A stretch of 64,000 bases of DNA from Candidatus Parcubacteria bacterium (GTDB taxonomy: Bacteria; Patescibacteriota; Patescibacteriia; Patescibacteriales; UBA12075). Where the stretch lies: assembly GCA_002869165.1 (NCBI GenBank), contig PKTK01000002.1:1235-65234 (forward strand). Reading direction: 5' to 3'. Below the pieces are notes generated by a model. That model made no database searches. It saw only the letters and a list, made by a program, of their open reading frames with translations, and was not told where the DNA came from. Position 1 is the stretch's first letter. Each line of letters begins with the position of its first letter. Shown one piece after another: positions 18,447-60,240 of this stretch. The position numbers were made by a program, and so were the translations under genes.

Positions 18447-18457
18447 TTCTCTCCTCC

Positions 18458-18691: not shown

Positions 18692-18712
18692 TTCCAAAAT
18701 TTTTCTCCCTAT

Positions 18713-19321: not shown

Positions 19322-19331
19322 ACTTTCCCCC

Positions 19332-19837: not shown

Positions 19838-19864
19838 AAAAAAAGAGGCTTTCGCCTCTTTTTG
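19838..19864 (-). terminator. intrinsic terminator after ndk
   Basis: agaggc-tttc-gcctct stem followed by a T-run on the minus strand. Confidence 0.7.
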
Positions 19865-19903
19865 AAATACTATCACCTATTTTCTGTCATCTACTATTTA
19901 AAA

Positions 19904-25645: not shown

Positions 25646-25739
25646 TTGTCATCTCGAACGGAGTGAGAGATCCCTTAAACATGAAATAGTTCACGGCTAA
25701 GGGATTTCTCCTTCCGCTTCGCTACACTCGAAATGACAA
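25646..25739. mobile_element. 94-bp GC-rich MITE-like element (TTGTCAT...ATGACAA) in the aspS leader
   Basis: ttgtcatctcgaacggagtgagagatccc ... gggatttctccttccgcttcgctacactcgaaatgacaa. Same family and relative position as the glyQS copy. Confidence 0.7.
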
Positions 25740-25751
25740 AATTTAATTAAT

Positions 25752-25965
25752 AAAAAAATTCGTCCTAGTTTCAGTATTAATAAATACTGAAACTAGGACG
25801 AATTTTCTTCGCGGTACCACCTAGATTCTCTGTTTTTTAACAAAGCTCTCAAACTGCTATAACGGGCTTACCCGGCAGGTTCTAGTCACTTTTTATTCAA
25901 GCTTTCTTCCTGCTCCTTCCTCAAGTGTTGGCTTGAGTCAAATGGATTTAAATATTTAATTGTAT
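25752..25965 (-). promoter_or_regulatory. T-box riboswitch leader of aspS
   Basis: Minus strand reads AAUCUAGGUGGUACCGCGAAG, a near-consensus T-box. CUAGG can pair with CCUAG of the terminator arm. The terminator has 21-nt arms (25758-25778 / 25784-25804) plus U7. A GAC triplet lies in the candidate specifier region. Confidence 0.85.
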
Positions 25966-26002
25966 TGCTATTATAAATAAAAAAAATCAAAATGTCAATA
26001 AA

Positions 26003-27961: not shown

Positions 27962-28094
27962 AGTTACTTTAATTTCTAAAATATAAATTTTAAATCCTAA
28001 ATAAATCCAAAATTCCTAATTTTTTAAATATTTGAGAATTTTAATTTGATATTTGTTTAGGATTTATTATTTAGTATTTAGGTTTTCATTGGTA

Positions 28095-33134: not shown

Positions 33135-33259
33135 TAATTTACCTAAAAATAGTAAAAAATAACAAAATAAATTTTTGTTAATACTCTAATATTATAACAT
33201 ATTTATACAAAAAAATAAAAAAACAAATATTTTTACGTATATGTTTAAACATAATCATA

Positions 33260-33289
33260 TGTACATTAAAATATACATTTTAATGTACA
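33260..33289. repeat. 30-bp near-palindrome TGTACA-TTAAAA-TATACA-TTTTAA-TGTACA
   Basis: Second copy of the TGTACA triple-box seen at 2811-2840. It lies 126 bp upstream of the ABC ATPase start. Confidence 0.8.
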
Positions 33290-37748: not shown

Positions 37749-37757
37749 ATATTTTAT

Positions 37758-37857
37758 TTGTCATTTCGTAAGGAGTGAAACGACTAGAGAAATCTCTTGA
37801 ACATCATCAGTATTAAAACCGTCTAAGAGATCTATTCGCTTCGCTACGAGATGACAA
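37758..37857. mobile_element. 100-bp MITE-like element (TTGTCAT...ATGACAA) in the rpsE-rplO spacer, where rpmD normally sits
   Basis: ttgtcatttcgtaaggagtgaaacg ... ttcgcttcgctacgagatgacaa. Same family as 15362-15472 and 25646-25739. Confidence 0.7.
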
Positions 37858-37872
37858 GCAATTTGTAATCTT

Positions 37873-39546: not shown

Positions 39547-39647
39547 TTTATTTTAGTGGGAAACTTGGAATTCTTGAGATCCTTGGGATTCTTGAAAAAC
39601 TGTCTCAAAATTCCTAAGATCTCAACACTCTTAAGCATCCTAATTAT
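39547..39647. repeat. operon-spacer hairpin element, family C (CTTGGGAT / CTTAAG words)
   Basis: ttgagatccttgggattcttgaaa faces tctcaaaattcctaagatctcaa. Homologous to 42256-42363. Confidence 0.65.
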
Positions 39648-40061
39648 TTAATATACTTCACAAAGAACTTCCCCTCCCAAGCCTTTCTTTCTGGCTTCTT
39701 TATTGGTCATTAAACCTTGTGGAGTTGAAATAACTGCGATTCCCAAATTATTCAAAACTTTTGGAAGATTTTCCTTATTTACGTAAATACGTAAACCTGG
39801 TTTAGAAATTCTTCTTATTCTAGTAATAGCAGACTTTCCGCTTTTTTTGTATTTTAGGGTAATCTTTAATTCTTTGAAACTTGTTTTTGACTTACCTCTA
39901 GGTGCTGATTCTTCTACGCTCACCTCTTGAACCCAGCCTTCCTTAGCTAAAATTTTTGCAAGTTCATGCTTAACTTTGCTCATAGGTAAAACAACATCAA
40001 ACTTATTAACAGCTGAAGCGTTTCTTATTCTTGTTAGCATGTCTGCGATTGGATCAGTCAT
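39648..40061 (-). CDS. rpsH: 30S ribosomal protein S8
   Basis: MTDPIADMLTRIRNA. Confidence 0.95.
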   Translation of the reverse strand: MTDPIADMLTRIRNASAVNKFDVVLPMSKVKHELAKILAKEGWVQEVSVEESAPRGKSKTSFKELKITLKYKKSGKSAITRIRRISKPGLRIYVNKENLPKVLNNLGIAVISTPQGLMTNKEARKKGLGGEVLCEVY

Positions 40062-40185
40062 AATATTATTATTTAATCATAGTGCAAATCTACAAACGAA
40101 ATGCAAATCTACAAATTTATACTATCTACATTTAAAAATTATTTTCATGTGCCCCATTTATGGCGGAGCTCCGCAAAGCGGATAA
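40062..40185. repeat. operon-spacer element related to family B
   Basis: After the upstream stop (minus strand): CCGC-tttg-CGG mini-hairpin, CCGCCATAAATGGGGC, then repeated GTAGATTTGCA words. Confidence 0.55.
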
Positions 40186-40371
40186 CTACCAGCTAGATCT
40201 AGTTACTCCTGGCAAATCACCATTTTCCGCAAGTTCTCTAAAACAAATACGGCACAGGTCAAAATCTCTCATATATCCATGATTTCTGCCACATCTCCAA
40301 CATCTTCTTACTATTCTAGTTGAATATTTTGGTTTTCTTTTCGCTTTTGCGATTAATGCTTTTCTAGCCAT
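40186..40371 (-). CDS. rpsN: 30S ribosomal protein S14, zinc-binding short type
   Basis: 61 aa, CWRCGR...CRIC. Confidence 0.93.
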
Positions 40372-40382
40372 GTATTTAAAAA

Positions 40383-40934
40383 TTATTTTTTATCTTCTTC
40401 TTTCTTAAATGGAAATCCCATTAGATCAAACAGTTCTTTTCCTTCTTCTTTGGTTTTTGCACTAGTTACTATAGTAACTTCTAGGCCAAAAACATTATCA
40501 ATTTCATCAGCTTGAATTTCAGGAAAAGCAGTATGCTCCTTGAATCCAATATTTAAATTACCACATTTATCAATATTCTTTGCATCAATTCCTCTAAAAT
40601 CTCTAACTCTTGGGAATGTTACATTAACCAATCTTTCCAAAAAGTCATACATCCTTTCTCTTCTAAGTATCACTGAAGCTCCAACTACCATTCCTTCTCT
40701 GATTTTAAAAGCTGAAATTGATTTTTTAGCTTTAGTTAAAACTGGTTTTTGACCTGAAATTCTAGTTAAAGCATTTACCACATTCTCAATATAAGCTTTT
40801 TCCTTACTGTGTCTACCCATCCCTACATTAATTACTACTTTTTCAACTTTAGGTATTTCAAGAACATTAGAGTAAGCGAACTTCTCTTTTAGTTTCTTGG
40901 TTATTTCTTTTTTGTATAAATCTTTTAATTTCAT
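40383..40934 (-). CDS. rplE: 50S ribosomal protein L5
   Basis: LKDLYKKEI...NVGMG...FPEI. Confidence 0.93.
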
Positions 40935-41043
40935 AATTGTTTTATAATCCTAATACTACAAATGATATCCGAATACTACAAATCTATTTTCTTAAACATT
41001 CGGATATGCCCCGTTTGTAGTTGGGGCTCGCTGAAGGCGATAA
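40935..41043. repeat. operon-spacer element, family B (ATATCCGAAT ... ATTCGGATAT)
   Basis: About 80 percent identical by eye to 43915-44024. Minus strand: mini-hairpin TCGC-cttca-GCGA, GCCCCAACTACAAACGGGGC, then a 10-bp inverted repeat ATATCCGAAT/ATTCGGATAT. Confidence 0.75.
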
Positions 41044-41364
41044 CTAATCTACTACTTGATCACATTTCTTACAAACTCTGAATTTTTTCTTACCTTTAGA
41101 TCCTTCGTTTGTTTGGTGACCTATTCTAGTTGGTTTTGAACATTTAGGACAAACCAACATCACATTTGAAATATTCATTGCAGCCGGGAATTCAATTCTT
41201 TGCCCTTTTTCACCTTGTCTTCTTGGTCTCATGTGCTTAATAGACAAATTCAAACCTTCCACGCTAACACGGTTTCTATCTGTGAAAATTTGCAAAACCT
41301 TGCCTGTTTTTCCTTGGTCTTTACCAGCTAAAATTATTACTTTGTCACCTTTCTTAATATTCAT
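41044..41364 (-). CDS. rplX: 50S ribosomal protein L24 (with C-terminal zinc-ribbon-like CPKC...CKKC)
   Basis: IKKGDKVIILAGKDQGKTGKV KOW motif. Confidence 0.92.
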   Translation of the reverse strand: MNIKKGDKVIILAGKDQGKTGKVLQIFTDRNRVSVEGLNLSIKHMRPRRQGEKGQRIEFPAAMNISNVMLVCPKCSKPTRIGHQTNEGSKGKKKFRVCKKCDQVVD

Positions 41365-41368
41365 AGTT

Positions 41369-41517
41369 CTACGAATTACGAATCCGTTACGAATTTACGA
41401 ATCCGCTTATTTAATCTCTTTGATTATTTTATAACTAATTTTTATTTTGGCCTTTAATACTCCTCAATACATTTATTAAAATTATTCGTAAATTCGTACA
41501 GTTTCGTATTTTTGTAG
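41369..41517. repeat. operon-spacer long hairpin element, family A (TACGAAT words)
   Basis: 34-nt arms at 41369-41402 and 41484-41517 (15 bp perfect TACGAATTTACGAAT/ATTCGTAAATTCGTA) with an 81-nt loop. Paralog at 43077-43226. Confidence 0.8.
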
Positions 41518-41526
41518 CCTATTTTT

Positions 41527-41898
41527 TTACAATACTTCTGGAGCCAAACTTGCAATCTTGAAAAAGCCTGCTCTTCTCACTTCTCTGGCGATTGGGCCAA
41601 AAATACGAGTTGCTTTTGGTTCCTTTTTCTCTTTATCAATAATTACACAAGCATTTTCATCAAATCTTAAATATGTGCCATCCTTTCTTCTAATTTCTTT
41701 TTTGGTTCTTACTACTACAGCATGCAAAACGTCACCTTTTTTAATAGCTGTATGTGGGGTCGCTTGCTTAACAGTTACTGTGATTATTTCACCCACTCCA
41801 GCATATCTTTTCTTATATCCACCCAAAACCCTGATACACTGTACTTTACGTGCTCCTGAATTGTCCGCTACTTTAATTTTTGATTCTACTTGTATCAT
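41527..41898 (-). CDS. rplN: 50S ribosomal protein L14
   Basis: [27 protein letters not shown]. Confidence 0.95.
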
Positions 41899-41961
41899 AT
41901 AAATTAGTTTAAAGTTGAAAGTAAAAAACTTTTTAACTTTATAAACTTTTTAACTTTCTGC

Positions 41962-42255
41962 TTATTTAATTACTCTCCATCTTTTATTCTTGCTCATTGG
42001 GCGACATTCAGTAAATGTTACTTTATCACCTTCTTTAAACTCATTTTTTTCATCATGGCATTTATATTTCTTGGAAACTGTATATCTTTTTTTGTATTTT
42101 GGATGCACCACAACTCTGTCTACTCTAACAACAACTGTTTTATCCATTTTGTCAGACACAACAACACCGTGAAATTTCTTTCTGATAACTTCCTTTTGTT
42201 TGTGCTCAACTTTTTTTGGAGTTGCTTTCTTGGTTGTTTTTTTCTTCTCTGCCAT
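41962..42255 (-). CDS. rpsQ: 30S ribosomal protein S17
   Basis: [28 protein letters not shown]. Confidence 0.93.
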
Positions 42256-42363
42256 TTTTTTATATGTGACTTTCGGAACCCTTGGGATCCTTGGGACTTT
42301 TGAAATTATATCTCAAGAGTCCTAAGGATCTCAACAATCCTAATGGTCTTATCTTAATTTAAA
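42256..42363. repeat. operon-spacer hairpin element, family C
   Basis: cttgggatccttgggacttttgaaa faces tctcaagagtcctaaggatctcaa. Confidence 0.65.
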
Positions 42364-42594
42364 CTATTTATTTTCTTTATTTTCTACTTTAGTTTCAGTT
42401 TTCACTTCTTTCTTGTTTGCATTTAAAAGTGTCATAATCTGAGCTACGGTTACCTTGATCTTTCTAATCTCTCTTACATCTTTAAGTTGTTTATTCGCAT
42501 CCTTAAATCTAAGATCTCTTAGCTTGTCACGAGACTCAGCCAAAATCCTATGTAATTCTGTTTCAGTTTTCTTTTTTAATTCTTTAATATCCAT
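42364..42594 (-). CDS. rpmC: 50S ribosomal protein L29
   Basis: Start at MDIKELKKKTETEL (Met11 of the track ORF). Confidence 0.88.
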   Translation of the reverse strand: MDIKELKKKTETELHRILAESRDKLRDLRFKDANKQLKDVREIRKIKVTVAQIMTLLNANKKEVKTETKVENKENK

Positions 42595-42662
42595 ATACAA
42601 TATATTTATTCGTATGTGCGACATCCTTTAGTTAAAATAATAGTGTCGCGCTTCAAAAATAA

Positions 42663-43067
42663 TTATTTTTTGACAACTTTACACTTCACTGGAAGTTTGT
42701 AAGCGGCTAATCTCATTGCCTCTACAGCCATCTTTTCTTCAACACCATCCATTTCAAACATGATCATGCCAGGTTTTACTACTGCTACATAGTGATCAAC
42801 AGCACCTTTACCTTTACCCATAGGCATTTCACCACCTTTGGCTGTTACCGGTTTGTCGGGAAAAATTCTGATCCATATTTTACCACCACGCTTCGTATAT
42901 CTAGTCATAACTCTTCTAGCAGCTTCAATTTGACGTGATGAAACCCAGCAAGGCTCCATAGTTTTTAGTGCATATTGACCAAAGCTAATGGTAAGCTTTC
43001 TAGAAGCTTTTCCGCCTCTTCTGCCTTTATGTGATTTTCTGTATTTAGTTTTCTTTGGCATTAACAT
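42663..43067 (-). CDS. rplP: 50S ribosomal protein L16
   Basis: [16 protein letters not shown]. Confidence 0.95.
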
Positions 43068-43076
43068 ATTTGTCTC

Positions 43077-43226
43077 CTACGAATTACGAATCCTTTGCGA
43101 ATTTACGAATCCATCTATTTAATCTATTTGATTATTTTATAAACTATTTATTTTAAATTGCTAGAAAATACTTCCAGGTACTACGCAAATTTATTCGTAA
43201 ATTCGTACCGATTCGTATTTTCGTAG
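43077..43226. repeat. operon-spacer long hairpin element, family A (paralog of 41369-41517)
   Basis: 34-nt arms at 43077-43110 and 43193-43226 with an 82-nt loop. The loop shares ttataaaataatcaaa.agattaaata with the other copy. The right arm abuts the TAG stop of rpsC. Confidence 0.8.
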
Positions 43227-43227
43227 C

Positions 43228-43914
43228 CTATTTTTTCTTTCCGATTACTTCTCCTTTTTTATCGTCTGTTTTTTCAAATTTATCACCTTTATAAATCCAA
43301 ACTTTGATTCCGATCACACCGTAAGTGGTATTAGCAATACCTCTGGCATAGTCAATATCAGCTCTTAGAGTATGAAGTGGAATCTTGCCACTGGTCAACA
43401 TTTCTGATCTGGCAATTTCAGCACCATTCAATCTTCCTGATACAATCACTTTCACTCCTAAGGCGCCAGCTCTTTCTACTCTAGACATAGTTTGCTTCAT
43501 TACTCTTCTAAATGGCATACGCTTTTCTAGATCTAAAGCCATAAGTTGTACGTTAATCTGTGCGCTCAAGTTAGGTCTATCGAATTCGTAAATATTTAGA
43601 TTTATATTGCCTGGTTTATAATTTTTTAAAAATTTAGTATGAACTTTTTTCTTTAAATCATCAGCACCTGAACCACCTCTACCAATAATAATTCCTGGTT
43701 TTGCTGTATAGATTCCTACATTAACTTTTTTAGCATCTCTTTCAACCTCTACCCTGTCGACACCAGCTTCTCTTAATTCTTTCATTAAAAACCTTCTCAT
43801 AGCAACGTCTTGCTGAACGTTCTTGCTATAGTCTTTTCCGCTGGCATACCATTTTGATGGCCATGCTTTACTTACACCGATTCTAAAAATTTTTGGATTA
43901 ATCTTTTTTCCCAT
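43228..43914 (-). CDS. rpsC: 30S ribosomal protein S3
   Basis: [15 protein letters not shown] domain, [10 protein letters not shown]. Confidence 0.95.
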
Positions 43915-44024
43915 ATTTTTATAATACGAATACTACTAATTATATCCGAATACTACGAACCTTTTTTATAAATCAATTCGGATATGCCCTGTTCGTAGTT
44001 AGGGCTTCCCGAAGGAAACATCAT
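43915..44024. repeat. operon-spacer element, family B (paralog of 40935-41043)
   Basis: Minus strand: TTCC-UUCG-GGAA tetraloop hairpin right after the rplV stop, GCCCTAACTACGAACAGGGC, then the ATATCCGAAT/ATTCGGATAT inverted repeat. Confidence 0.75.
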
Positions 44025-44600
44025 TTAACCGCTTTTTCTTCTGAAAACTTTTGACCCAAATCCCTTAGTGCTAGTTCCTTCGATCTTGGTATTTTTACCT
44101 TTTCCTTCTCCTCTTGGATCAACTATTTTTTTTCCTTTTTCTTCAGTATTTTTTTTATCTTTTTCTTTCTTGGTTTTAAGCTTAGCGTCTCCTTCTTCTT
44201 TTGCCTTAGCTCCCAATGAAATTGGGGCTTCAATTGTTTGTTTCTTTGCTTCCTTTGCGCCTGAATCAACTAGCTCGCCTAAAATTAAATTTATATGTGA
44301 AGTTCTCTTTCTAATAGGAGTGGCTCTTCCTCTTGCTCTTGGCATCCATCTTTTCATGGTTACACCTTCATCAACTTTGATTTCTTTCACGAATAAATTA
44401 GTTTCATTAAGTTCATATGTATTTACAGCATTAGCAATTCCTGACTTAATAAGCTTAGCAACTACTTCTGTTGCTTTCTTATTCATAAACTTTAATTGAT
44501 TCAAAGCATCATCAACTTTTGCACCACGAACCACATCCACAACCAATCGTGCTTTTCTTGGTGAAATTCTTACATTTTTTACGCTTGCTTTAACTTCCAT
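44025..44600 (-). CDS. rplV: 50S ribosomal protein L22 with a Lys-rich C-terminal extension
   Basis: RISPRKARLVVDVVRG core; 191 aa. Confidence 0.92.
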   Translation of the reverse strand: MEVKASVKNVRISPRKARLVVDVVRGAKVDDALNQLKFMNKKATEVVAKLIKSGIANAVNTYELNETNLFVKEIKVDEGVTMKRWMPRARGRATPIRKRTSHINLILGELVDSGAKEAKKQTIEAPISLGAKAKEEGDAKLKTKKEKDKKNTEEKGKKIVDPRGEGKGKNTKIEGTSTKGFGSKVFRRKSG

Positions 44601-44709
44601 GATATTTTAGTTAGATTCTTAGGCTTCTTAAGGCCCTTTGGATTATTGAAAATCTTTTTTTCAAAAATCCCAAGAGTCTTAAAAGTCTTAAGGGTCTTTT
44701 TATAATTAC
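44601..44709. repeat. operon-spacer hairpin element, family C-like
   Basis: gattcttaggcttcttaaggccctttggatt faces aatcccaagagtcttaaaagtcttaagggtc. Confidence 0.6.
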
Positions 44710-44985
44710 TTATTTTTGAGTCTTGGCCATTTTACCGCCATGACTTACAAATTTTCTAGTGTGAGCAAACTCACCAAATTTATGTCCTACCATATTCTCT
44801 ACAACCGTAACATTTATATGTTGTCTGCCGTTGTGTACACCAAAAGTAAACCCAACCATCTCTGGAGTTACAGTACATGATCTATCCCAAACCTTAATAA
44901 CTGTTTTGTCATTAGGCTGCATATTCTTTACTTTATTTAGTAACCTTTCGTTTACGTAAGGTCCTTTCTTTAAACTTCTTGGCAT
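44710..44985 (-). CDS. rpsS: 30S ribosomal protein S19
   Basis: [11 protein letters not shown]...GHKFGEF. Confidence 0.95.
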
Positions 44986-45000
44986 AATATTATTTCTAAA

Positions 45001-45158
45001 CTAATACGCGAATTAATTACTAATTTACGAATTCTATTTCTATAGCTTCTATCCCTTTATTTTATTTTTTAATAACCTGCTTTATCTTACGAATTTACTA
45101 ACTCTATCAAAGGAAATATTTAATAGTATTAGTAAATTCGTAAGCAATTAGTTATTAG
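45001..45158. repeat. operon-spacer hairpin element, family A-like (TACGAAT / TACTAAT words)
   Basis: Perfect 16-bp pairing between cttacgaatttactaa (45086-45101) and ttagtaaattcgtaag (45129-45144). The outer arms 45001-45032 / 45127-45158 are imperfect. Confidence 0.7.
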
Positions 45159-45166
45159 TTTAGGAT

Positions 45167-46012
45167 TTATCTTTTTTTCTTACTTGATTTTCTTCTAATA
45201 ATCAGTTTATCACTTGGACGATTTTTCTTTCTGGTCTTAACTCCTAGAGCTGGTTTACCCCATGGAGTTTTTGGATGTTTCAAACCGATAGGTTGGTTAC
45301 CTTCACCACCACCATGTGGGTGATCGACTGGATTCATAGCTGTACCACGAACCACTGGTCTCCAGCCTAACTTTCTTTTTCTGCCGGCACTTCCTAGTTT
45401 AATATGTCTTTTATCAGGATTACTTGCTTGACCAACAGTACACATACATTCTTTTTTGATCAATCTAATTTCTCCTGAAGGCATTTTTATTTGTGCGTAT
45501 TTATCTTCTACACCCATCACTTGAACACTGTTTCCTGCTCCTCTAGCAATCTTTGCTCCAAAACCTGGCTCAAGTTCTACATTATAGATATCAACTCCAG
45601 CAATTAAAAATTTTACTGGTAAAGCATTTCCTGCTTTGATCTCAATCTTTTTTCTTGAGCTTAAAATTGTTTCACCAACTTTTAAACCTATTGGTGAAAT
45701 AATATATCTTTTTTCACCATCAGCATAATGAAGTAATGCTATTCTAGCACCTCTGTTTGGATCATATTCGATAGAAGCAACTTTAGCTGGAATGTCATAT
45801 TTATCTCTTTTGAAATCAATTATTCTAAGAGCTCTTTTCACTCCTCCGCCTCTATGTCTAATTGTAATTCTTCCTTGAGAGTTTCTTCCGCTGATTTTCT
45901 TTTTGGCTTTTACCAATCTTTTTTCCGGTGTTGTTTTTGTAATATCTACAAAATCATCAAATCTTGCTTGACGTCTTCCCGGGGTTGTAGGTTTTACTCT
46001 TTTAACTGCCAT
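45167..46012 (-). CDS. rplB: 50S ribosomal protein L2
   Basis: [21 protein letters not shown]. Confidence 0.96.
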
Positions 46013-46098
46013 TGTATTTATAATTTTTGCGATAATGTATTAACAATCTCATTCTCCGCAAATAATTTTTAATTCTTAATTATTAATTCTTAATTGAA

Positions 46099-46560
46099 TT
46101 AAACTCCCTCGTAAATATTAATGGTTTTACCTTTTGGTAATGTTACTACCGCTTTTTTCCAGTCTTTCCTTTTACCCATAGTTCTACCATATCTTACTTT
46201 TTTACCTAGAACAGTCACAATATTTACTGCAACTGGTCTGATGCCGTATACTTCTAAAACTGACTCGGCTATTTCAATTTTGTTAGCTTTTTTACTTACT
46301 GCAAAAACATATTTATGCTCCGCGCTCAAACTTGCTGCCTTTTCTGTGATCAATGGCTTAACCAATACTTTGTAAGCTTTTGTTTTTGAGCTGTTTTTTT
46401 CACCTTTCTTAATCACCTTTTTGTCATCCTTGTACAAGTCTTTGGTGGCTACTTTCTTGGTTTCTTCTTTCTTAGCTTCTTTTTTAGTAGCAGGTTTAGC
46501 TTTGCTTTGAGTTTTTGGCTCTTTTACGTCTTCTTTTGTATCTTTTTTAAACAAACCCAT
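46099..46560 (-). CDS. rplW: 50S ribosomal protein L23 with a Lys-rich N-terminal extension
   Basis: Core YKVLVKPLITEKA...YVFAVSKKANKIEI; 153 aa. Confidence 0.9.
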   Translation of the reverse strand: MGLFKKDTKEDVKEPKTQSKAKPATKKEAKKEETKKVATKDLYKDDKKVIKKGEKNSSKTKAYKVLVKPLITEKAASLSAEHKYVFAVSKKANKIEIAESVLEVYGIRPVAVNIVTVLGKKVRYGRTMGKRKDWKKAVVTLPKGKTINIYEGV

Positions 46561-46574
46561 ATGTTATTTTGCAA

Positions 46575-47237
46575 TTATTTTGTATAAATTTCTTGAATAC
46601 TGTCAACTGATTTCTCTGAAATAATTAGTACATTATATTTTAACAAATCAAGAATATTAATATTTTCTAAATTAATATATTTTACGCCTTCCAAATTTCT
46701 TAAAGAATATTTTGCCTTATCGTCCTTTTCTTCGTTAACTACTAGGAAACTTCTTTTTGGTTGCTTCTCTTCTTTTTTGTTAGTGATTTTTTCAAAGTTT
46801 TTAATAACTTCCAAAGCTTCTTTGGTTTTAAAATTCTCAATCTTCAAATCTTCAACAATCATTAAATTATCATTTTTAACAAAATCTGAAAGCACCATTG
46901 AAATTGCACTTCTTTTCATTTTTCTGTTAATATCTTTTTTAAAATTTCTTTCTTTAGTTGGTCCAAAAGTAATACCACCACCAATCCAAATAGGACTTCT
47001 GTTTGAGCCAACCCTAGCTCTACCTGTTCCTTTCTGTCTCCATGGTTTTCTGCCACCACCTCTTACTTCTGCTCTGCTTTTAGTATGAGCCAAAACCTGT
47101 CTTTCGTTTGAACTTTGAGCTACCATAGCTTGATGAACCAATGATTCATTAACTTCCATACCAAAAACTTTTTCATCAAGGTTTTTATCCTTAACTGCCT
47201 CTGCTTTTTGATTGTATACTTTAACTTTGATTGACAT
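46575..47237 (-). CDS. rplD: 50S ribosomal protein L4
   Basis: AHTKSRAEVRGGGRKPWRQKGTGRAR. Confidence 0.94.
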   Translation of the reverse strand: MSIKVKVYNQKAEAVKDKNLDEKVFGMEVNESLVHQAMVAQSSNERQVLAHTKSRAEVRGGGRKPWRQKGTGRARVGSNRSPIWIGGGITFGPTKERNFKKDINRKMKRSAISMVLSDFVKNDNLMIVEDLKIENFKTKEALEVIKNFEKITNKKEEKQPKRSFLVVNEEKDDKAKYSLRNLEGVKYINLENINILDLLKYNVLIISEKSVDSIQEIYTK

Positions 47238-47304
47238 GTATTTAATTGTTAAATTGCTTTATTGTTAAATTATTAACAATATAGTCATTTAACTTTTTGA
47301 CAAT

Positions 47305-48147
47305 TTATTTAGACTCTTCTTTCTTAGCATCTACTTTTTCTTTTGCTTCTATTACTTCTTTTTCCACTTCTTTAGGAGTGGTAGCCTCTTTTGCATCACG
47401 GGTAAGTGATTCATCCGCCGCACCAGAGGTGCTTTGGGCGGACTTATCTTTCTCTGCAATAGTCTCTTCTTTCTTTACTTCTTCTTTCTTTTCTTGTTTA
47501 GTGATTTTTAGTTCTCCTTCACCAGCAATTAACACAAGTCCATTTCTAGCACCAGGAATACCACCTTTAATATATAAAATATTATTTTCTTGATCTACTT
47601 GAACAATCTCTAATGTTCTCATAGTTACTTTGTCACCACCAGTTCTTCCACCCATTCTTGTGCCTTTGAACACGTGAGCTGGTCCAGTAGCGCCAATAGA
47701 ACCCGGCATTCTTGATTGATCTTTATTACCGTGTTGTTCGTTTGTTCCTTTGAAGCCATGTCTTTTAACAACACCTTGAAAACCTTTTCCTTTTGAAGTT
47801 CCGGTAATTTGAATCTTGTCACCAGCTTCAAAAGTATCAACTTTCACAACATTTCCTAATTCTATATCAGTATTAACCTCCTCTACTCTGAATTCTCTTA
47901 AATTATGTAACGTTGTTTTGTTATCTATGTTAACACCAGCTTTTTTCAAATGCATCTTTTGTGGCTTGTTTATATTCTTTGTCTTTCTCTCACCAAAGCC
48001 AAGTTGAACAGCATTATAACCATCTTTTTCCTCAGTCTTTAGTTGGGTAATTCGACATGGACCTGCTAAAACTTTAGTAACAGCAATCACTTGATCACCT
48101 TGCCAAATTTGAGTCATTTCTTGTTTTTTCCCTATGATAAATTTCAT
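47305..48147 (-). CDS. rplC: 50S ribosomal protein L3 with a C-terminal extension containing an in-frame repeat unit
   Basis: FKGTSKGKGFQGVVKRHGF core. The tail carries SAQSTSGAADESLTRDA, encoded by 47395-47444. Confidence 0.93.
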   Translation of the reverse strand: MKFIIGKKQEMTQIWQGDQVIAVTKVLAGPCRITQLKTEEKDGYNAVQLGFGERKTKNINKPQKMHLKKAGVNIDNKTTLHNLREFRVEEVNTDIELGNVVKVDTFEAGDKIQITGTSKGKGFQGVVKRHGFKGTNEQHGNKDQSRMPGSIGATGPAHVFKGTRMGGRTGGDKVTMRTLEIVQVDQENNILYIKGGIPGARNGLVLIAGEGELKITKQEKKEEVKKEETIAEKDKSAQSTSGAADESLTRDAKEATTPKEVEKEVIEAKEKVDAKKEESK

Positions 48148-48403
48148 AAAATTCTTTTAGAAAGGCTAGTTTTTAAAAACAAAAAACTGGAACCTTTAGG
48201 ACCCAGCCGACAATACAAAAGCCATATTTATGACTCTATTCTAAATATTTATTTAGATTAATATGAATGTCGATTATCTCCTAGTAAAAATTATTCTTTC
48301 CTTAAGCACTTTCGTTGTTAAACGAGTTACCAAAGACCAAAATAATTCCTTATTTTAATGATACTAGTATATACTATTTTCAAAAATAAATCAAGTCCCC
48401 TAG

Positions 48404-48525
48404 CTAATTACTAATCATTTACAAATTTACTAATATTTTTACCTAATATTAGTTAATTTAAAAACAAAATCTGTAGTGAACAAAATTAATCAGAATTAGT
48501 AAATTCGTAATTAATTAGTAATTAG
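48404..48525. repeat. operon-spacer long hairpin element, family A-like
   Basis: 31-nt arms ctaattactaatcatttacaaatttactaat (48404-48434) and attagtaaattcgtaattaattagtaattag (48495-48525), inside the 386-bp rpsJ-rplC spacer. Confidence 0.7.
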
Positions 48526-48533
48526 TTTAGTTT

Positions 48534-48887
48534 CTACATTTTAATTTCCACATCAACTCCTGCTGGAAGACTAAGGTTGGTTAGTTCTTCAACGGTTTTT
48601 GCTGTTGGTTCAACAATATCAACTAATCTCTTATGAGTTCTCATCTCATATTGATCTTTAGCTGATTTGTGAACAAATGTAGAACGATTTACTGTATATT
48701 TCTTCTTCTCTGTTGGAAGCGGAATAGGACCAAAAACTTGAGCACAGCTTCTTTGAGCAGTGTCAATAATAGTTTTTGTTGATTGATCAATAATCTTGTG
48801 ATCAAAAGCTTTGATTTTGATACGAATCTTTTGACCAACTGTTCCACTTTCATTTTTTTCTTCTTTTTTTGCTTTTTTCTCTACCAT
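48534..48887 (-). CDS. rpsJ: 30S ribosomal protein S10 (short Lys/Glu-rich N-terminal extension)
   Basis: [16 protein letters not shown]...[12 protein letters not shown]. Confidence 0.94.
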
Positions 48888-48939
48888 TTGAATAATTATA
48901 ATGCGAACCTACAAACAATTTGTAGATCAGAATAATATT

Positions 48940-48983
48940 TAATAAATAAGCACAACAAAGTCGCTCAAACAAAGTGAGCGACT
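48940..48983 (-). terminator. terminator-like hairpin after tuf
   Basis: agtcgctca / tgagcgact stem followed by a moderately T-rich tract on the minus strand. Confidence 0.45.
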
Positions 48984-48991
48984 CTATGTGA

Positions 48992-50179
48992 TTATTTCAA
49001 AATCTTTGTTACAACACCAGCGCCAACTGTTCTTCCGCCTTCACGAATAGCAAATCTTTGCTTTTCTTCCAAAGCAATTGGAGCAATTAGTTTAACTGTC
49101 AATGGAACAGTATCACCAGGCATAACCATTTCAGTTCCTTCGGCTAATTCTACTTCACCAGTAACATCTGTTGTTCTGATATAAAATTGTGGTTTATAAC
49201 CTTTGAAAAATGGTTTGTGACGACCACCTTCTTCTTTGCTTAGTACATATACCTCAGTCTCGAACTCAGTATGAGGAGTAACGGTTCCTGGTTTTGCTAG
49301 AACCTGACCTCTCTCAACGTCAGTTTTCTTCATACCACGAAGAAGAACACCTGCATTATCACCACACATACCTTCATCAAGTTGTTTGTTAAACATCTCG
49401 ATTCCAGTTACTACTGTTTTTTGAGTATCTTTCAAACCAACAATTTCGATTTCTTCATTTAATTTAACAACACCTCTTTCAATTCTTCCTGTTACAACAG
49501 TACCACGTCCTTCAATTGAAAATACATCTTCAATAGGAAGTAAGAATGGTTGGTCAACGTCTCTTTCTGGTTCTGGAATAGAAGAATCAAGAGCATCCAT
49601 CAACTCCATAATAGCATCTCCAGCTTCTGTATCTGGAGCTTCAAGAGCTTTTAGAGCTGAACCTCTGATGATTTTAATATTATCACCATCAAATTCGTAC
49701 TTTTTAAGTAGATCTCTTACTTCTTCTTCAACAAGATCAATAAGTTCTTTGTCCTCAACCATGTCACATTTATTTAAAAATACAACCATGTTAGGCACAC
49801 CAACTTGTCTTGCTAATAGAATGTGCTCTCTTGTTTGAGGCATAGGACCATCAGTAGCAGCTACTACCAAAATAGCACCATCCATTTGTGCAGCACCAGT
49901 GATCATATTTTTAACATAATCAGCGTGGCCTGGACAGTCAACGTGAGCATAGTGTCTATTGTCTGTTTCGTACTCAACATGAGCTGTAGCAATAGTAATA
50001 CCACGTTCTTTTTCTTCATGAGCTGCGTCAATTTGGTCAAGCTCCTTATTGGAAGCTGTTTTACCTTTTGCGATTAACACCTTTAGAATTGCAGCGGTTA
50101 AAGTAGTTTTACCGTGATCTACGTGACCAATAGTACCTACGTTAACATGCGGTTTATTTCTTTCAAATTTTTCTGCCAT
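48992..50179 (-). CDS. tuf: elongation factor Tu
   Basis: [19 protein letters not shown], full length 395 aa. Confidence 0.97.
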
Positions 50180-50312
50180 GTTTTTTAGCCTGTACGACCC
50201 TTAAGTCATCTATAGTTTGACTCAAGGTTTCTACCCCTTTAAAAAGGGAACCAGTCGTATTTTTTTAAATTAATTATTAAATTTAGTTTATAATAAGCTT
50301 ATTAAACTACTA

Positions 50313-50864
50313 TTAATCTTCAACTTCTTCCAAATAATACCTGTCCTCTTCTATTATCTCTTCAGCGTTCTTTTTTCTATCACCTGGAATTGCCCAGTTC
50401 TTTTTCTTCTTATTTTTTTTAATAAATTGTTCTTTTTCTCTTGCTATAGTTGAAAAACTGTGCCAATCATTATCTTCTTCATCTCCCTCCTCCTCTTCAT
50501 CATCGAATAATTCTTCTAATTCAATATCATCATACTCCTTAGACATATATGGATCATCTAAATCACCATAATAATCATCATCTGACAAATTTTTAACTTC
50601 ATTTTCTGCTATTATTTTATCTAAGCTTAGCTGATTTTCATCTATTTCTTGGTCACTTTTCCAAATTGCAATATCGCGATTTATTTTATCAGCCAACTCC
50701 TCTTCTGTCAAGCCTCTCACCGGAGACCTTCCCACCACTATCTTCTCATATTCATCTACACTCATAACAACAAATGGATCATTTTGTCCACTTTGATCAA
50801 AAGCTATAATTCTATCACCTGTCTTCCTTGATAAATCTATTAATTTTTGCAATTTATTATCCAT
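50313..50864 (-). CDS. hypothetical acidic protein inserted between fusA and tuf
   Basis: 183 aa with a D/E-rich centre. The N-terminal PFVVMSVDEYEKI faintly resembles Phd/YefM-type antitoxin N-termini (weak). Confidence 0.5.
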   Translation of the reverse strand: MDNKLQKLIDLSRKTGDRIIAFDQSGQNDPFVVMSVDEYEKIVVGRSPVRGLTEEELADKINRDIAIWKSDQEIDENQLSLDKIIAENEVKNLSDDDYYGDLDDPYMSKEYDDIELEELFDDEEEEGDEEDNDWHSFSTIAREKEQFIKKNKKKKNWAIPGDRKKNAEEIIEEDRYYLEEVED

Positions 50865-50899
50865 GTGTGTGATTTATTTATTATATAGTGAATATTGGC

Positions 50900-50993
50900 C
50901 TACGAAAATACAAATCAATACGAATTTACAAATCGGATAATTACGAACATTATAAAATTATTCGTAAATTTGTATTAATTTGTATTTTCGCAG
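50900..50993. repeat. operon-spacer hairpin element, family A-like (TACGAAA / TACAAAT words)
   Basis: 33-nt arms at 50900-50932 and 50961-50993. I count 29 of 33 positions complementary. Confidence 0.7.
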
Positions 50994-51015
50994 ACTTTTC
51001 CGTAAAAAAATCCGG

Positions 51016-53091
51016 TTATTTCTTCTCTGCAGTAATTTTTTCAGCAATATTTTTTGGTACTTCTGAATAATGTAAAAATTCCATAGTATAATTTGCTCTA
51101 CCTTGAGACATACTTCGTAGCTGTGTAGCGTAACCAAACATTTCAGATAATGGAACACTGGCATTTACCACCTTTGCATTTGCTCTATCTTCCATTTGTC
51201 CAATTTGACCACGTTTCGAATTCAAGTCTCCAACAATACTTCCCATATATTCTTCAGGGGTAACAACTTCAACTTTCATGATTGGTTCAAGTAGAACTGC
51301 ATTTGCTTTTCTACAAGCTTCTTTAAAACCAAAGATTGCTGCCATTTTAAAAGCTGATTCAGAAGAGTCAACTTCATGATATGAACCATCATATACTGCA
51401 ACTTTAACATCTACCATAGGAAAACCAGCAATAACACCAGAATCCATAGCCTCTTTAATACCTTTTTCTATCGCTGGAACATAATCAGCTGGAACAACAC
51501 CACCTTTGATCTCGTTTAAAAATTCAAAGCCAGCACCTTCTTCTTGTGGTTAAACTCTAAGCCAACAATGACCGTATTGTCCCCTGCCCCCTGATTGCTT
51601 GATGTATTTACCTTCTGCTTCAGCTGTTTGTCTGATTGTTTCTCTGTATGATACTTGAGGCTGACCGATATTAGCTTCTACCTTAAACTCTCTTTTCATA
51701 CGATCAATAATAACATCCAAATGAAGTTCTCCCATACCTGAAATCAAAGTTTGATTTGTTTCCTCATCAGTTTCTACTCTAAATGTTGGGTCTTCTTCAG
51801 CAAGTTTTTGCAAAGCAAGTCCCATTTTTTCTTGGTCTGCTTTTGTTTTAGGTTCAACCGCAATCTTAATAACAGGCTCTGGAAAAGTAATTGACTCCAT
51901 CAAAAGCTTTCTTGATTCATCACAAAGAGTATTACCAGTCACTGTTCCTTTTAGACCAATTACAGCAGCAATATCACCTGCATACACTTCACTAACTTCC
52001 TCTCTGTGATTGGCATGCATTCTTACAAGTCTTCCAATTCTTTCTTTGTTTCCACTTGAAGTGTTGTATACATATGAACCAGATTTTAATACTCCAGAAT
52101 AAACTCTCACAAAACAAAGTTTACCAACAAATGGATCAGTGGCAATCTTAAAAGCAAGTCCAGCAAAAGCTTCATTATCACTTGCTTTAACTGGGATCTC
52201 TTTTGTCTCATCATTTATATCCAAACCAACTAGCTCTTTTACGTCTAGTGGAGATGGAAGATAGGCAATCACAGCATCAAGCGCATGTTGTACGCCGATA
52301 TTCTTAAGAGCAGATCCTGCCATAACTGGAAAAAGTTGAGTTGCTAATACTCCCTTTCTGATAGCTCCTTTTAATTCTTCTACAGTAATTTCCTGTCCAT
52401 CAAGATATTTTTCGGTCAAAGCATCGTCAACTTCTACCACTCTTTCAATCATTTCATTTCTTAATTCTTCACATTTTGCTTTAATGTCTTCAGGAATGTC
52501 AATTTCTACTATTTGCTCACCATGCATTCCTTCAAATTTGTAAGCCTTCATAAGAATAAGATCAACAATACCACTTAGGTTGTCTTCAGCGCCAATTGGA
52601 AATTGGATAGCTACAGCGTTTGGATTCAATCTATCTCTGATTGATTTAAGTGACATATCAAAATCACCACCTAGCTTATCCATCTTATTTACAAAACAAA
52701 GTCTAGGAACATTATATTTATCAGCTTGTCTCCAAACTGTTTCAGACTGAGGTTCAACACCAGCAGCACCATCAAATACTGCTACCGCACCATCAAGCAC
52801 ACGTAAAGAACGCTCTACTTCTACAGTAAAGTCAACGTGACCTGGAGTATCAATAATATTTAAACGATGATCTTTCCAAAAGGCTGTAGTAGCAGCTGAA
52901 GTGATAGTAATACCTCTTTCTTTTTCCTGCTCCATCCAATCCATATCAGACTCACCATCATGAGTTTCTCCAATTTTATGTTTTTTACCAGTGTAAAAAA
53001 GTACCCGTTCAGTAAATGTGGTCTTCCCCGCATCAATGTGAGCCATGATACCTATATTTCTGGTTTTTTCAAGTGAATATTCTCTAGACAT
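51016..53091 (-). pseudogene. fusA: elongation factor G interrupted by a single in-frame TAA (51550-51552); otherwise full length and colinear
   Basis: [18 protein letters not shown], ...[46 protein letters not shown]... Both track ORFs (51550..53091 and 51016..51447) are in the same frame (105-nt offset). The 'pseudogene' call is only the literal code-11 reading. Confidence 0.85.
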
Positions 53092-53194
53092 ACTTATTTT
53101 AATTTTTTAATTTTTAATTTTCAATTTTGTAAACAATTTTCAATGTTTCAATTTTGAAATTTAAAAAACTTATTCTATTAATTTATATAAATTT

Positions 53195-53716
53195 TTATTC
53201 GTTTTCTTCTTCGAATTTTACAAATCTTTCAATTAAGTCGGTGCCTTCTTCGTCAGTTACTGCTACATAGCCCTCTTTGGTACTACTAAATTCGAAGTAT
53301 AGGGTTACAGAATATTTATTATCTCTTACCTTAACTTCTTCTCCCACTAAAGGAGTTTTGTCGCTCTTTCTTAATTCAACAAACACACTTTCCTTTTCTT
53401 GATCAACTGTTCCTTCTATTTTAAGTGGACTACTAACAACACTATCTTCTTCAATGTTAATAGTTAATGACTTGTTTACTGTTTCGCTGTTTTCTCCATC
53501 AATGATCTTATCAATGACTTCTTGATCTTGTTTTGTCTGCAAATTAATATCTTCAATCGCCTGCTTTGCTCCTTCATAATCTTCAGTTAACTCAACTGGA
53601 GTTTTTTTTGAAAAAAAAGAGCCACCATAGACAAGGAATGCTATTAGTAATACTACTACTAATAACCCTATCAGTGCGGCATAACCTTTTTTGTTATCTA
53701 AAAGTGTAAACATCAT
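53195..53716 (-). CDS. membrane-anchored hypothetical protein inserted between rpsG and fusA
   Basis: N-terminal TM helix (AALIGLLVVVLLIAFLVYGG), then a beta-rich ectodomain. Confidence 0.55.
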   Translation of the reverse strand: MMFTLLDNKKGYAALIGLLVVVLLIAFLVYGGSFFSKKTPVELTEDYEGAKQAIEDINLQTKQDQEVIDKIIDGENSETVNKSLTINIEEDSVVSSPLKIEGTVDQEKESVFVELRKSDKTPLVGEEVKVRDNKYSVTLYFEFSSTKEGYVAVTDEEGTDLIERFVKFEEENE

Positions 53717-53791
53717 ATTAGCTTTTAGGTATTAGCTTTTAGCTTTTAGGGCTTTCCTACAAGCTAGAAGCTAAAAGCTAGTAGCTAGGAT
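53717..53791. repeat. operon-spacer inverted word repeat (TAGCTTTTAG words)
   Basis: tagcttttaggtattagcttttagcttttagg faces ctacaagctagaagctaaaagctagtagcta. Confidence 0.55.
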
Positions 53792-54259
53792 CTACCTAGC
53801 AAAGTGAGCAAATGCTTTATTTGATTCAGCCATTTTATGTACCATTTCTTTCTTTCTTACAGCATTTCCTTCTCCGGTTGAAGCAGCGGTAATTTCTGAA
53901 GCTAAACGTTCAGCCATTGATTTTCCTTTCTTATCTCTAGCTGCTTCGATAAGCCAACGACACCCAAGAGTAAATCTTCTCTCACCTCTAACTTGGTAAG
54001 GAATTTGATAGTTAGCTCCACCGATTCTTCTACCTCTAACTTCTAGTAACGGAGAAACTTTCTTAAGTGCTTTATTAAAAACGTGTCTTGGATCTTGTTT
54101 GGTTTGTTTCTTGATAATATCAAAAGCTGAATACACAATTCCTTGAGCAATCCCTTTTTTACCATCAACCATGATATAATTTATAAATTTTGAAATATCA
54201 GTATCATTATATCTGATATCTCCTTCGATTTTTCTTTTTGGAGCTCTTTTTCCCCTCAT
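53792..54259 (-). CDS. rpsG: 30S ribosomal protein S7
   Basis: MRGKRAPKR...VEVRGRRIGGANYQIP. Confidence 0.95.
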   Translation of the reverse strand: MRGKRAPKRKIEGDIRYNDTDISKFINYIMVDGKKGIAQGIVYSAFDIIKKQTKQDPRHVFNKALKKVSPLLEVRGRRIGGANYQIPYQVRGERRFTLGCRWLIEAARDKKGKSMAERLASEITAASTGEGNAVRKKEMVHKMAESNKAFAHFAR

Positions 54260-54431
54260 AATGTTTTCTTCAACTTAGCCGGAGCATTCTTAACGCAATC
54301 ACCTGACACTAAGCTTACTCATTATTTTTCTTAAACTTTTTAATTTCTAATTTTATAATTTTCTATGTTTACAAATTTATTTATTTGTGTAATTTAAAAT
54401 TGTTTACAAATTATAAATTACTACTTATAAA

Positions 54432-60135: not shown

Positions 60136-60240
60136 GATTCTAGAGACCCTTGATATCTTTGGGATATTTGAGAATCTGCTTACTTACAGATCTTAATTTC
60201 CCAAAAAACAAGACTCATAATAATCGTACTCAAATATTAT
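60136..60240. repeat. spacer element with family C-like vocabulary between the adaptor and RND genes
   Basis: agagacccttgatatctttgggatatttgagaatc ... cagatcttaatttccc. Confidence 0.4.

Follow-up and report, generated by a model that had tools for sequence, protein, structure and literature searches.

The window analysed here is a 64,000-nucleotide (nt) stretch of Candidatus Parcubacteria bacterium (GCA_002869165.1, contig PKTK01000002.1, positions 1,235 to 65,234 of the forward strand) with a G+C content of 33%. It carries the S10-spc-str ribosomal protein (rp) operon on its minus strand, and most of the spacers between these genes hold hairpin-forming inverted arrays of short tandem words. 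The nearest relatives of the L2 protein are found in metagenome-assembled genomes (MAGs) of Patescibacteria (Candidate Phyla Radiation, CPR) labelled Falkowbacteria or Parcubacteria, with 83% identity at best. The credible genes of the window lack in-frame TGA, which indicates the standard genetic code and rules out an alternative code with UGA recoding, hinted at by open reading frame (ORF) statistics.

Palindromic word repeats in the spacers of the operon

Between rpsL and secY, 20 of the 26 junctions are 60-386 nt long, an abnormal length for an rp operon, as the preliminary description of this DNA had claimed; the other co-oriented genes of the window are 2-28 nt apart. The spacer lengths listed in that description were reproduced with a sole difference, the rplP-rpmC spacer, for which counting from the first ATG gives 38 nt and an rpmC start at MDIKEL gives 68 nt.

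Each spacer was folded on both strands and compared with 60 dinucleotide-preserving shuffles, a check that the preliminary description had proposed and that was applied to 19 spacers of its list. On the mRNA strand, z was -3 or lower in 13 of the 19 (lowest -7.2), and 11 of these 13 also reached z <= -3 on the opposite strand; the borderline spacers are 39547-39647, where z is -2.8 on the plus strand, and 50180-50312, where both strands have z near -3.2. Six fold no better than shuffles (40062-40185, 41899-41961, 43915-44024, 46013-46098, 53092-53194 and 54260-54431). Folding, Tandem Repeats Finder (TRF) and autocorrelation together bear out the claim that most spacers consist of hairpin-forming inverted arms of short tandem words, and the hairpins do bracket the intercistronic regions.

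A whole element, 45-170 bp long, is an array of a 7-9-nt word (TACRAAT, CTTRGGA/TTGAGA, TAGCTTT and others) followed by an array of the complementary word. TRF reported arrays of period 7-9 nt in the window, all periods falling between 6 and 19 nt, and the autocorrelation peaks at lag 8 (0.357 versus a baseline of ~0.30). All arrays of the window are confined to spacers, including junctions inside operons. TACGAAT occurs 26 times in the window against 6.2+-2.5 expected; 19 copies lie in rp spacers and 0 in other intergenic DNA. Of 148 hairpin arms drawn from the window and 80 relatives (see below), 52 have a best tandem period of 7 nt (13.6 expected), 29 one of 9 nt (14 expected) and 17 one of 8 nt. 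The window and its relatives hold 150 hairpins with at least 18 Watson-Crick pairs. Pairing between arms amounts to 70% in the best register, still reaches 56% after a slip of one word and is 29% out of phase; since slipped arms still pair, complementarity is mostly a property of the words. The periodicity runs one unit past the paired arms.

The position of the hairpins within the spacers is not symmetrical. The median distance to the upstream stop codon is 8 nt and that to the downstream start codon 13.5 nt (93 versus 51 cases, p = 2e-4), hence there is a direction-dependent constraint on hairpin placement. The unpaired tail before the start codon is 42% A. Shine-Dalgarno motifs are present in 15 of 399 rp spacers of the window and the 80 relatives, and the last 15 nt before the start are 81% A/T. 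The suggestion that the hairpins could bury start regions was largely not borne out: starts are left free more often than buried. For rplX the preliminary description was accurate: the hairpin stops 4 nt before the ATG, with no Shine-Dalgarno motif.

Three families recur among the elements. Family A (five copies) is built of CTAC, TACGAAT, TACTAAT and TACAAAT words and has, in some copies, an AT-rich loop of up to ~80 nt; family B (three copies and one outside the operon) combines CTTAAGA/CTTRGGA/TTGAGAT words with a short loop, and its arms are mismatched about once in 8 nt; family C (three copies) is a composite of two small G+C hairpins and 17-18-nt words containing CTACRAA. One-off elements are built on TAGCTTT, TTAACAAT, TTGAAAA and AAAGTT. 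The blocks that align between A1 and A2, among them much of the loop, show 91% identity, and C2 is 84% identical over 90 nt to C3 (43915-44024), which implies that at least some elements were copied between spacers. The most similar copies in the window are such pairs at 84-91% identity, all inside the operon. As was noticed before, the TAG stop of rpsC (43228-43230) lies inside a repeat block, common to A1 and A2 by alignment, that begins upstream of the A2 hairpin, and word-type spacers also occur outside the operon (27962-28094, 60136-60240 and 954-984). The elements are as follows.

27962 to 28094, minus strand: CCTAAAT/ATTTAGG word hairpin outside the rp cluster; z -3.2 / -3.9; TRF; word-level matches to L038, L044 and L067
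37758 to 37857, minus strand: rpsE-rplO hairpin (spacer 37749-37872), just beyond the range of the preliminary description; 37 pairs, dG -33.1, z -3.3 minus / -5.0 plus
39559 to 39640, minus strand: family B, rpsH-rplF, CTTAAGA/TTGAGAT/CTTAGGA versus TCCCAAG/TCTCAAG; 32 pairs, dG -30.0, z -4.9
40083 to 40182, minus strand: family C1 composite, rpsN-rpsH, two small G+C hairpins, then TTTGTAGATTTGCA x2; z -1.4, the whole fold not above shuffles
40941 to 41040, minus strand: family C2 composite, rplX-rplE, CGC..GCG; CCCC-ACTACAAAC-GGGG; ATATCCGAAT/ATTCGGATAT; ATTTGTAGTATTMGGAT x2; z -4.1
41369 to 41517, minus strand: family A1, rplN-rplX, CTAC-TACGAAn / ATTCGTA words, AT-rich loop of ~70-80 nt; 40 pairs, dG -32.7, z -5.6
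41917 to 41958, minus strand: weak AAAGTT-word hairpin, rpsQ-rplN; TRF period 8; z -0.7
42268 to 42348, minus strand: family B2, rpmC-rpsQ, a single mismatch about every 8 nt; 32 pairs, dG -34.0, z -5.4 (plus -6.4)
43077 to 43226, minus strand: family A2, rpsC-rplP; 51 pairs, dG -41.3, z -5.8
43927 to 44019, minus strand: family C3 composite, rplV-rpsC, loop word ACTACGAAC complementary to downstream GTTCGTAGT; z -0.9 (minimum free energy); 100% identical in ENA contig L081
44613 to 44697, minus strand: family B3, rpsS-rplV, CTTAAGAC / CTTGGGAT; 32 pairs, z -3.8 (plus -6.1)
44996 to 45163, minus strand: family A3, nested, rplB-rpsS, TACGAAT/TACTAAT; 55 pairs, dG -41.4, z -4.7
46022 to 46095, minus strand: rplW-rplB spacer, TAAGAAT/TAATTCT tandem words at 46063-95 (TRF) and a small hairpin at 46022-67
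47248 to 47293, minus strand: TTAACAAT-word hairpin, rplC-rplD; 18 pairs, z -4.3
48400 to 48530, minus strand: family A4, TACGAAT/TACTAAT, in the first third of the rpsJ-rplC gap; the rest of the gap (48148-48399) holds a promoter-like site and a conserved leader
48906 to 48990, minus strand: tuf-rpsJ spacer, terminator-like G+C hairpin followed by a U-rich stretch (48951-48990; terminator scan) and a small CTACAAA/TTTGTAG hairpin (48906-48928); z -7.2
50898 to 50995, minus strand: family A5, between fusA and the 183-codon ORF orf183, TACAAAT/TACGAAT; 40 pairs, dG -44.2, z -7.1
53111 to 53167, minus strand: between the 173-codon ORF orf173 and fusA, TTGAAAA/ATTTTCA array with a weak hairpin; TRF period 7, 8.7 copies; z -1.4 / -3.8
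53719 to 53787, minus strand: rpsG-orf173, TAGCTTT/AAAGCTA heptamer hairpin; 25 pairs, dG -27.3, z -4.8; TRF period 7 in both arms
54277 to 54425, minus strand: rpsL-rpsG, TTTGTAAA/TTACAAA words (TRF), no significant fold; z -0.2
60136 to 60240, plus strand: family-B-like hairpin outside the rp cluster, CTTGATATC / TTTGGGAT / TTTGAGA

Chimeric palindromes introduced by library preparation or assembly are a practically negligible explanation. Short-read assemblies do break at the repeats, and the ENA contig L081 ends at the start of the A2 element; however, the same organism, at 99.5-99.9% identity, is present in JGI 3300007102, Logan SRR5894289, ENA ERZ794998 and ENA ERZ794999, and these four independent datasets yield identical-length spacers with zero indels. 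The same architecture, moreover, occurs in dozens of unrelated MAGs. The hairpin at 39559-39640 shows two adjacent substitutions in strain ERZ794998.

The window itself differs from the public assemblies by sparse transversions, ~1 per kb, none of which changes a hairpin; a base difference specific to the window lies in rplN. An in-frame TAA in fusA (51550-51552) is a single G>T change (51552) relative to three public assemblies, all with an uninterrupted fusA of 691 aa, and the residue found there in relatives is Glu; recoding or a pseudogene was ruled out, the difference being seen only in this window. Two ORFs of the str operon have no Pfam match, one of 183 aa (50313-50864) between fusA and tuf and a membrane-like one of 173 aa (53195-53716) between rpsG and fusA. 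The gene-sized fusA-tuf gap is found in nearly all of the 80 relatives.

Some spacers contain features other than word repeats, such as the terminator-like hairpin after tuf. The small hairpin at 46022-46067 (GCGGAGAAUGAG...CAUUAUCGC), unlike the word hairpins, is conserved in L001, where one G-C pair has become A-U by a compensatory change, and in L006, L020, L030 and L082/83; it is a candidate conserved leader of rplB. All relatives have a long rpsJ-rplC gap (150-700 nt). In the window a promoter-like TTGATT-17-TATACT (48394-48366) lies in this gap, and a segment within 48148-48399 is conserved in L002 and L020. These features suggest that rpsJ and tuf share a transcript and that rplC has a promoter and leader of its own.

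Elsewhere in the window, 18161-19903 is a 1.7 kb region without a credible ORF under the standard code, having just short TGA-containing ORFs. The leaders of glycyl- and aspartyl-tRNA-synthetase-like genes (15382-15767 and 25683-26002) resemble T-boxes (GGTGGTACCGCG then a terminator), below Rfam gathering scores. A 12-nt tandem word with the palindrome TGTACA (ATGTACATTAAA) constitutes a separate repeat family at two distant intergenic sites (2806-2847 and 33259-33289).

The elements among relatives and in other phyla

Eighty loci around rplB (L001-L080) were fetched from relatives and all their rp junctions were tabulated. The relatives span the whole range from fully compact operons to ones as expanded as that of the window. 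Compact operons, with no conserved structure, are found for instance in L042, L057 and L070, as well as in L082/L083 (S3 82% identical); the preliminary description had named such relatives as evidence against its own proposal. Expanded relatives have the same architecture made of other words (TTAGTTAA, TTTCCGAT, TTTCGATTGACGAT and others), and 110 distinct words were counted in 193 arrays. Orthologous spacers hold unrelated words and are not alignable, and the sequence homology between the window elements and the relatives is confined to the word level. Turnover is visible between genome pairs at 87-89% DNA identity, in which arrays of 80-150 nt are present in one and absent from the other at orthologous junctions. 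Some arrays are purely direct, without a hairpin, and in one pair (L030/L032) a possible seed is visible in the compact partner. Hairpins occupy 53 of 365 other co-oriented junctions of the relatives versus 113 of 1006 rp junctions, thus they are not rp-specific. These comparisons show that the elements are DNA-level palindromes which are not conserved among relatives.

One word of the window occurs far beyond this clade. Metagenome contigs were scanned for two tandem TACGAAT words, which gave at least 120 loci; in at least 47 of these the match lies inside an inverted repeat with at least 18 Watson-Crick pairs. In the listed examples, the arms are runs of nnTACGAAT / ATTCGTAnn on contigs of 29-67% G+C, and the flanking ORFs of 29 elements among the matches listed show that most fill the entire spacer between co-oriented or convergent housekeeping genes. 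CTAC...GTAG ends are recurrent in the family. Among the matches listed, the 5' arm carries TACGAAT in 36 elements and the reverse in 3; as the palindrome is identical on both strands, the 36:3 ratio reflects an intrinsic polarity. A special abundance of the tandem in viral contigs was ruled out (63 matches versus 113 and 66 for permuted control words), and none of the 63 viral tandems forms a hairpin.

One of the contigs belongs to Vicinamibacterales (Acidobacteriota) and has the hairpin between ilvB and ilvN. Among related genomes, the orthologous junction is 3 nt long in one and holds in another an 83-nt TACGAAT hairpin, the first word of which overlaps the stop codon; in two assemblies with the same ilvB protein it holds a 70-nt direct CTTCGAA array resembling the gene end, and in a further genome 109 nt of G+C-rich hairpins. 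Two of the three ilvB-ilvN arrays are continuous with the gene end, and the ilvN-ilvC junction varies in like manner.

The recurrence of TACGAAT bears on whether the elements are mobile. Non-autonomous mobile elements (MITE-, REPIN- or foldback-like), whose arm words would be binding sites of a transposase supplied in trans, could spread within and between genomes, and the paralogous copies at different junctions, the assembly breaks at the elements, the occurrence of the TACGAAT family across phyla with fixed polarity and recurrent ends, and one locus (L181) bearing two copies all fit such a spread. Target-site duplications (TSDs), however, were found neither at A1/A2, nor at the 47 metagenomic elements among the matches listed, nor on comparing filled with empty ilvB-ilvN junctions. 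A Pfam scan of the 17 window ORFs without obvious housekeeping identity gave no transposase, RAYT or Nop domain. In addition, 110 words in one clade would demand as many transposase specificities, the arrays are in phase with gene ends, and the viral tandems lack hairpins. We consider this explanation very unlikely.

A different use of the words has been considered, in which the arrays are binding sites of a word-specific protein and the pairing of the arms is secondary. Such a protein could act on DNA, as a ribbon-helix-helix (RHH) protein polymerising on 7-8-bp repeats, or on RNA, as an S1-, Csp- or CsrA-like protein; omega, MetJ and ParG are RHH proteins that occupy direct or inverted 7-8-bp repeats. 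The 7-8-nt cores are conserved and the linker bases vary, which gives the periodic mismatches; a shift by one word leaves the arms pairing nearly as well; and a small number of word types, their polarity fixed, turn up repeatedly both within one genome and in different phyla. For the TAACTGA repeats, such a protein has likewise been proposed (PMC4679880). Nevertheless, the diversity of words is too great for one factor, no candidate gene is linked to the elements among the window ORFs and the element flanks, and the rapid replacement of words at orthologous sites is hard to square with a regulon. We regard this proposal as highly improbable.

The Acidobacteria-like contigs (58-67% G+C) carry other intercistronic arrays or hairpins as well, made of AAATCCC/GGATTTG, TTTGGGA, ACCTACTGA x9, CACCGAG/CTCGGTG and ACGAAGA/CTTCGTG (L118 785-865; L195 1688-1771 and 6898-6964; L454 3833-3942; L455 3794-3971). 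In another CPR contig (L108 7971-9055) the order of rp genes is unusual, rpsL being directly followed by rplE with a TACGAAT hairpin between them.

Origin and possible roles of the elements

If the hairpins worked as RNA, selection could be expected to favour the transcribed strand. In the 150 hairpins, 336 of the arm mismatches are G.U and 295 are A.C. Every A.C would be read as G.U from the antisense strand, and the two counts therefore give no clear sign that the transcribed strand is under selection. With neither position nor sequence conserved and no G.U bias, a conserved RNA function is not supported. Rfam covariance models gave 0 matches at gathering thresholds, and at E <= 1 only miRNA precursors appeared, below threshold, a likeness to long hairpins in general. 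Promoter-like sites are not enriched in the spacers, nor are terminator-like sites (8 versus 7.6 expected), among which only the tuf-distal hairpin qualifies. Stop-codon polarity as a design of the arms, with (TACGAATT)n open in three frames and its complement closed in three, was ruled out by nearly equal numbers of stop triplets (424 versus 422).

The hairpins could still be adaptive RNA elements, serving as RNase III sites, exonuclease barriers, or cistron insulators or Rho shields, for which any folding sequence would suffice and the words would be free to vary. In the window they are concentrated in the most highly expressed operon, other operons being compact; they fill the spacer yet spare the A-rich start region; their geometry is pre-miRNA-like, with 25-55 bp and periodic mismatches; and they are stable among strains. 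Roles in stability or coupling were also proposed for the hairpins of the cyanobacterial STRR heptamers (PMC2670836). Against this, the antisense strand folds equally well and G.U pairs are not in excess over A.C on the mRNA strand, close relatives manage without the elements, and in relatives hairpins are as frequent outside the rp operons. Word hairpins also occur between convergent genes, and some arrays are direct-only and form no hairpin. We think that such an adaptive role is unlikely.

We propose, with moderate confidence, that the elements are fast-turnover palindromic tandem repeats, STRR-like, which grow in place and are tolerated in the operon. An array would nucleate beside a gene end, often on the stop-codon side, and would grow by replication slippage, while the inverted half may be gained by fold-back or strand-switch copying. 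An element would occasionally be copied to a nearby spacer, and over the time in which species diverge it would be lost or replaced. In this lineage, translation appears to begin on short A/U-rich leaders and to do without Shine-Dalgarno pairing. A hairpin that pairs with itself would keep the extra RNA from pairing with neighbouring start regions and so render the insert inert, and selection would need only ~10-15 A-rich nt to be free before each start codon. Self-folding, with ~13 A-rich nt left ahead of the start, may thus be the reason why the elements are tolerated. Growth in place is preferred to a transposed MITE on account of the absence of TSDs and, among the 17 scanned ORFs of the window, of a transposase, the words continuous with gene ends, the empty orthologous site and the 110 words in one clade. 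Among the roles put forward in the preliminary description, selfish MITE-like insertion comes closest to the evidence as far as tolerance between essential genes is concerned; its transposition part is not supported.

The elements are probably transcribed within the polycistronic rp mRNA, given that promoter- and terminator-like sites are not enriched in the spacers. This mRNA would carry long imperfect stem-loops that can pair in several registers. The stem-loops may guard the cistrons upstream of them against 3'-5' exonucleases, may be RNase III targets or may keep Rho off naked RNA. They may have a role in mRNA processing or stability.

Five observations weigh against growth in place as a complete account. 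Slippage alone is insufficient for the identity of A1 and A2, loop included, which requires copying between spacers. The word number is invariant among assemblies at 99.5-99.9% identity, unlike that of typical slippage-prone repeats. Two word types dominate the window, which plain slippage from random seeds does not explain, and neither does plain slippage explain why TACGAAT recurs with its 36:3 polarity (among the matches listed) in CPR and also in Acidobacteria-like contigs of 60-67% G+C. Finally, the concentration of the elements in the rp cluster within the window could reflect selection for function. Because TACGAAT recurs across phyla with its polarity, the window elements are restricted to the rp cluster, whole elements have been copied and strains show complete stability, a reading stays alive in which the elements form a cross-phylum class of genetic elements with a limited vocabulary (TACGAAT, GGGAT-type and a few others) and fixed polarity. 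Such elements would be recognised by a host factor or spread by transposase-independent copying, would home to intercistronic junctions and would act as insulators or processing sites in bacteria without Shine-Dalgarno pairing. We judge this to be quite unlikely.

CPR genomes are among the smallest and most streamlined known; several CPR lineages nonetheless have ~2 kb of palindromic repeats, not conserved, within the operon that is most essential to them. S10-spc-str need not be compact where Shine-Dalgarno pairing and tight coupling can be dispensed with, and intercistronic junctions are hot spots filled independently by different lineages. A single word with fixed polarity across phyla offers a handle for telling a mutational from a factor-driven origin. 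In practice, word hairpins break short-read assemblies and can mislead the prediction of operons and gene starts in MAGs.

Comparison with known repeat systems

Several systems share the intergenic location and the ability to form hairpins. REP, BIME and REPIN elements are intergenic, hairpin-forming and often intercistronic, REPINs being inverted doublets. Their unit, however, is an imperfect palindrome of 20-40 nt, with one sequence per RAYT and hundreds of copies, whereas the arms in the window are runs of 7-9-nt words that differ between spacers; no RAYT was seen in the window (17 ORFs scanned against Pfam). REPs carry a conserved GTAG head, to which the CTAC...GTAG ends of family A bear a superficial likeness. 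The Correia elements of Neisseria and the ERIC/IRU elements of Yersinia are palindromic inserts of ~100-150 bp between co-transcribed genes; folded in the mRNA, they serve as RNase III substrates or make the flanking segments more or less stable. These are single conserved families with TSDs and with terminal inverted repeats that lack internal periodicity; the window elements have no TSDs, periodic arms and many unrelated words. The foldback (FB) transposons of Drosophila have long inverted arms made of short tandem subrepeats but are eukaryotic, kilobase-sized and tied to a transposase-bearing form, so that the likeness is architectural only. A 77-bp inverted repeat of P. gingivalis, which surfaced in a literature search for the word, is unrelated.

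TIGR arrays, which are frequent in CPR, resemble the window elements in being short-period arrays with palindromic features (PMC12045711). In their units of ~36 nt an edge repeat alternates with a loop repeat, each followed by a variable 9-nt spacer; the units have UG/CCA boxes and lie beside a tas gene with a Nop domain (PMC12045711). A TIGR array was ruled out here, as only periods of 6-19 nt occur and both operon ORFs without a Pfam match lack a Nop domain, with neither a tas gene nor UG/CCA boxes.

The closest resemblance is to the heptameric repeats, which are over-represented in many bacteria and for which slippage linked to the polymerase footprint was suggested (PMC4692102). The cyanobacterial STRR heptamers are tandem 7-nt units in intergenic or intercistronic DNA, some of which form a hairpin inside an operon, as between hupS and hupL, where transcript stability or translational coupling was proposed (PMC2670836). 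STRRs are also reported to extend a helix of RNase P RNA (Vioque 1997). STRRs differ from the window elements in their words (CCCCAGT and similar, against TACGAAT and CTTRGGA) and in phylum, the window being from CPR; in the window nearly every junction of one operon is filled, by several word families with periods of 7-9 nt.

In each Xanthomonas genome, GGGAATC arrays form 70-75 inverted pairs in convergent orientation that could fold into stem-loops or cruciforms, and a GGGGAYT array of Nostoc lies inside an operon, between pecE and pecF (Rehm et al. 2015, PMC4692102). Like the elements described here, these are intergenic heptamer arrays, with inverted pairs, that differ in length and sequence between close species (PMC4692102). 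They rely, however, on one dominant G-rich word with G-quadruplex potential; the window has many A/T-rich words without such potential, and GGGAWTC is not enriched in it (7 versus 8.7 expected). Xcc and Xac, furthermore, have 83-90% of sites in common, while the window elements lack positional conservation at comparable divergence.

The TAACTGA repeats of marine Beggiatoaceae, cyanobacteria and Bacteroidetes occupy spacers without ribosome-binding sites, and several are internal to rp operons (fusA, L3, S4, S1, pnp); they are distributed across phyla with no evident transfer mechanism (MacGregor 2015, PMC4679880). Spacers without ribosome-binding sites, the presence in rp operons and a cross-phylum word are paralleled by TACGAAT in CPR and Acidobacteria. 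TAACTGA arrays are nearly all direct (169 direct sets versus one inverted) and lie immediately upstream of starts, whereas the window arrays are inverted hairpin pairs ~13 nt clear of the start; TAACTGA itself is not enriched in the window (9 versus 11.7 expected).

With a unit of ~7 nt repeated head to tail, intergenic location, convergent pairs and variability, the window elements belong with the intergenic heptamer-type repeats, although they use neither TAACTGA nor GGGAATC/GGGGAYT, which sets them apart as a member of that class and not as another kind. The statement of the preliminary description that no such system had been described has to be withdrawn, since heptamer repeats that form intercistronic hairpins or lie inside rp operons are on record (PMC2670836, PMC4692102, PMC4679880), if never explained. 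The observation is confirmed to be real and well described, neither unprecedented nor demonstrably functional. Heptamer-type repeats, noticed since the 1980s and never explained, now extend to CPR and Acidobacteria; the case described here adds a new phylum, many words and a saturating density in one operon, with the repeats in their inverted, hairpin form.

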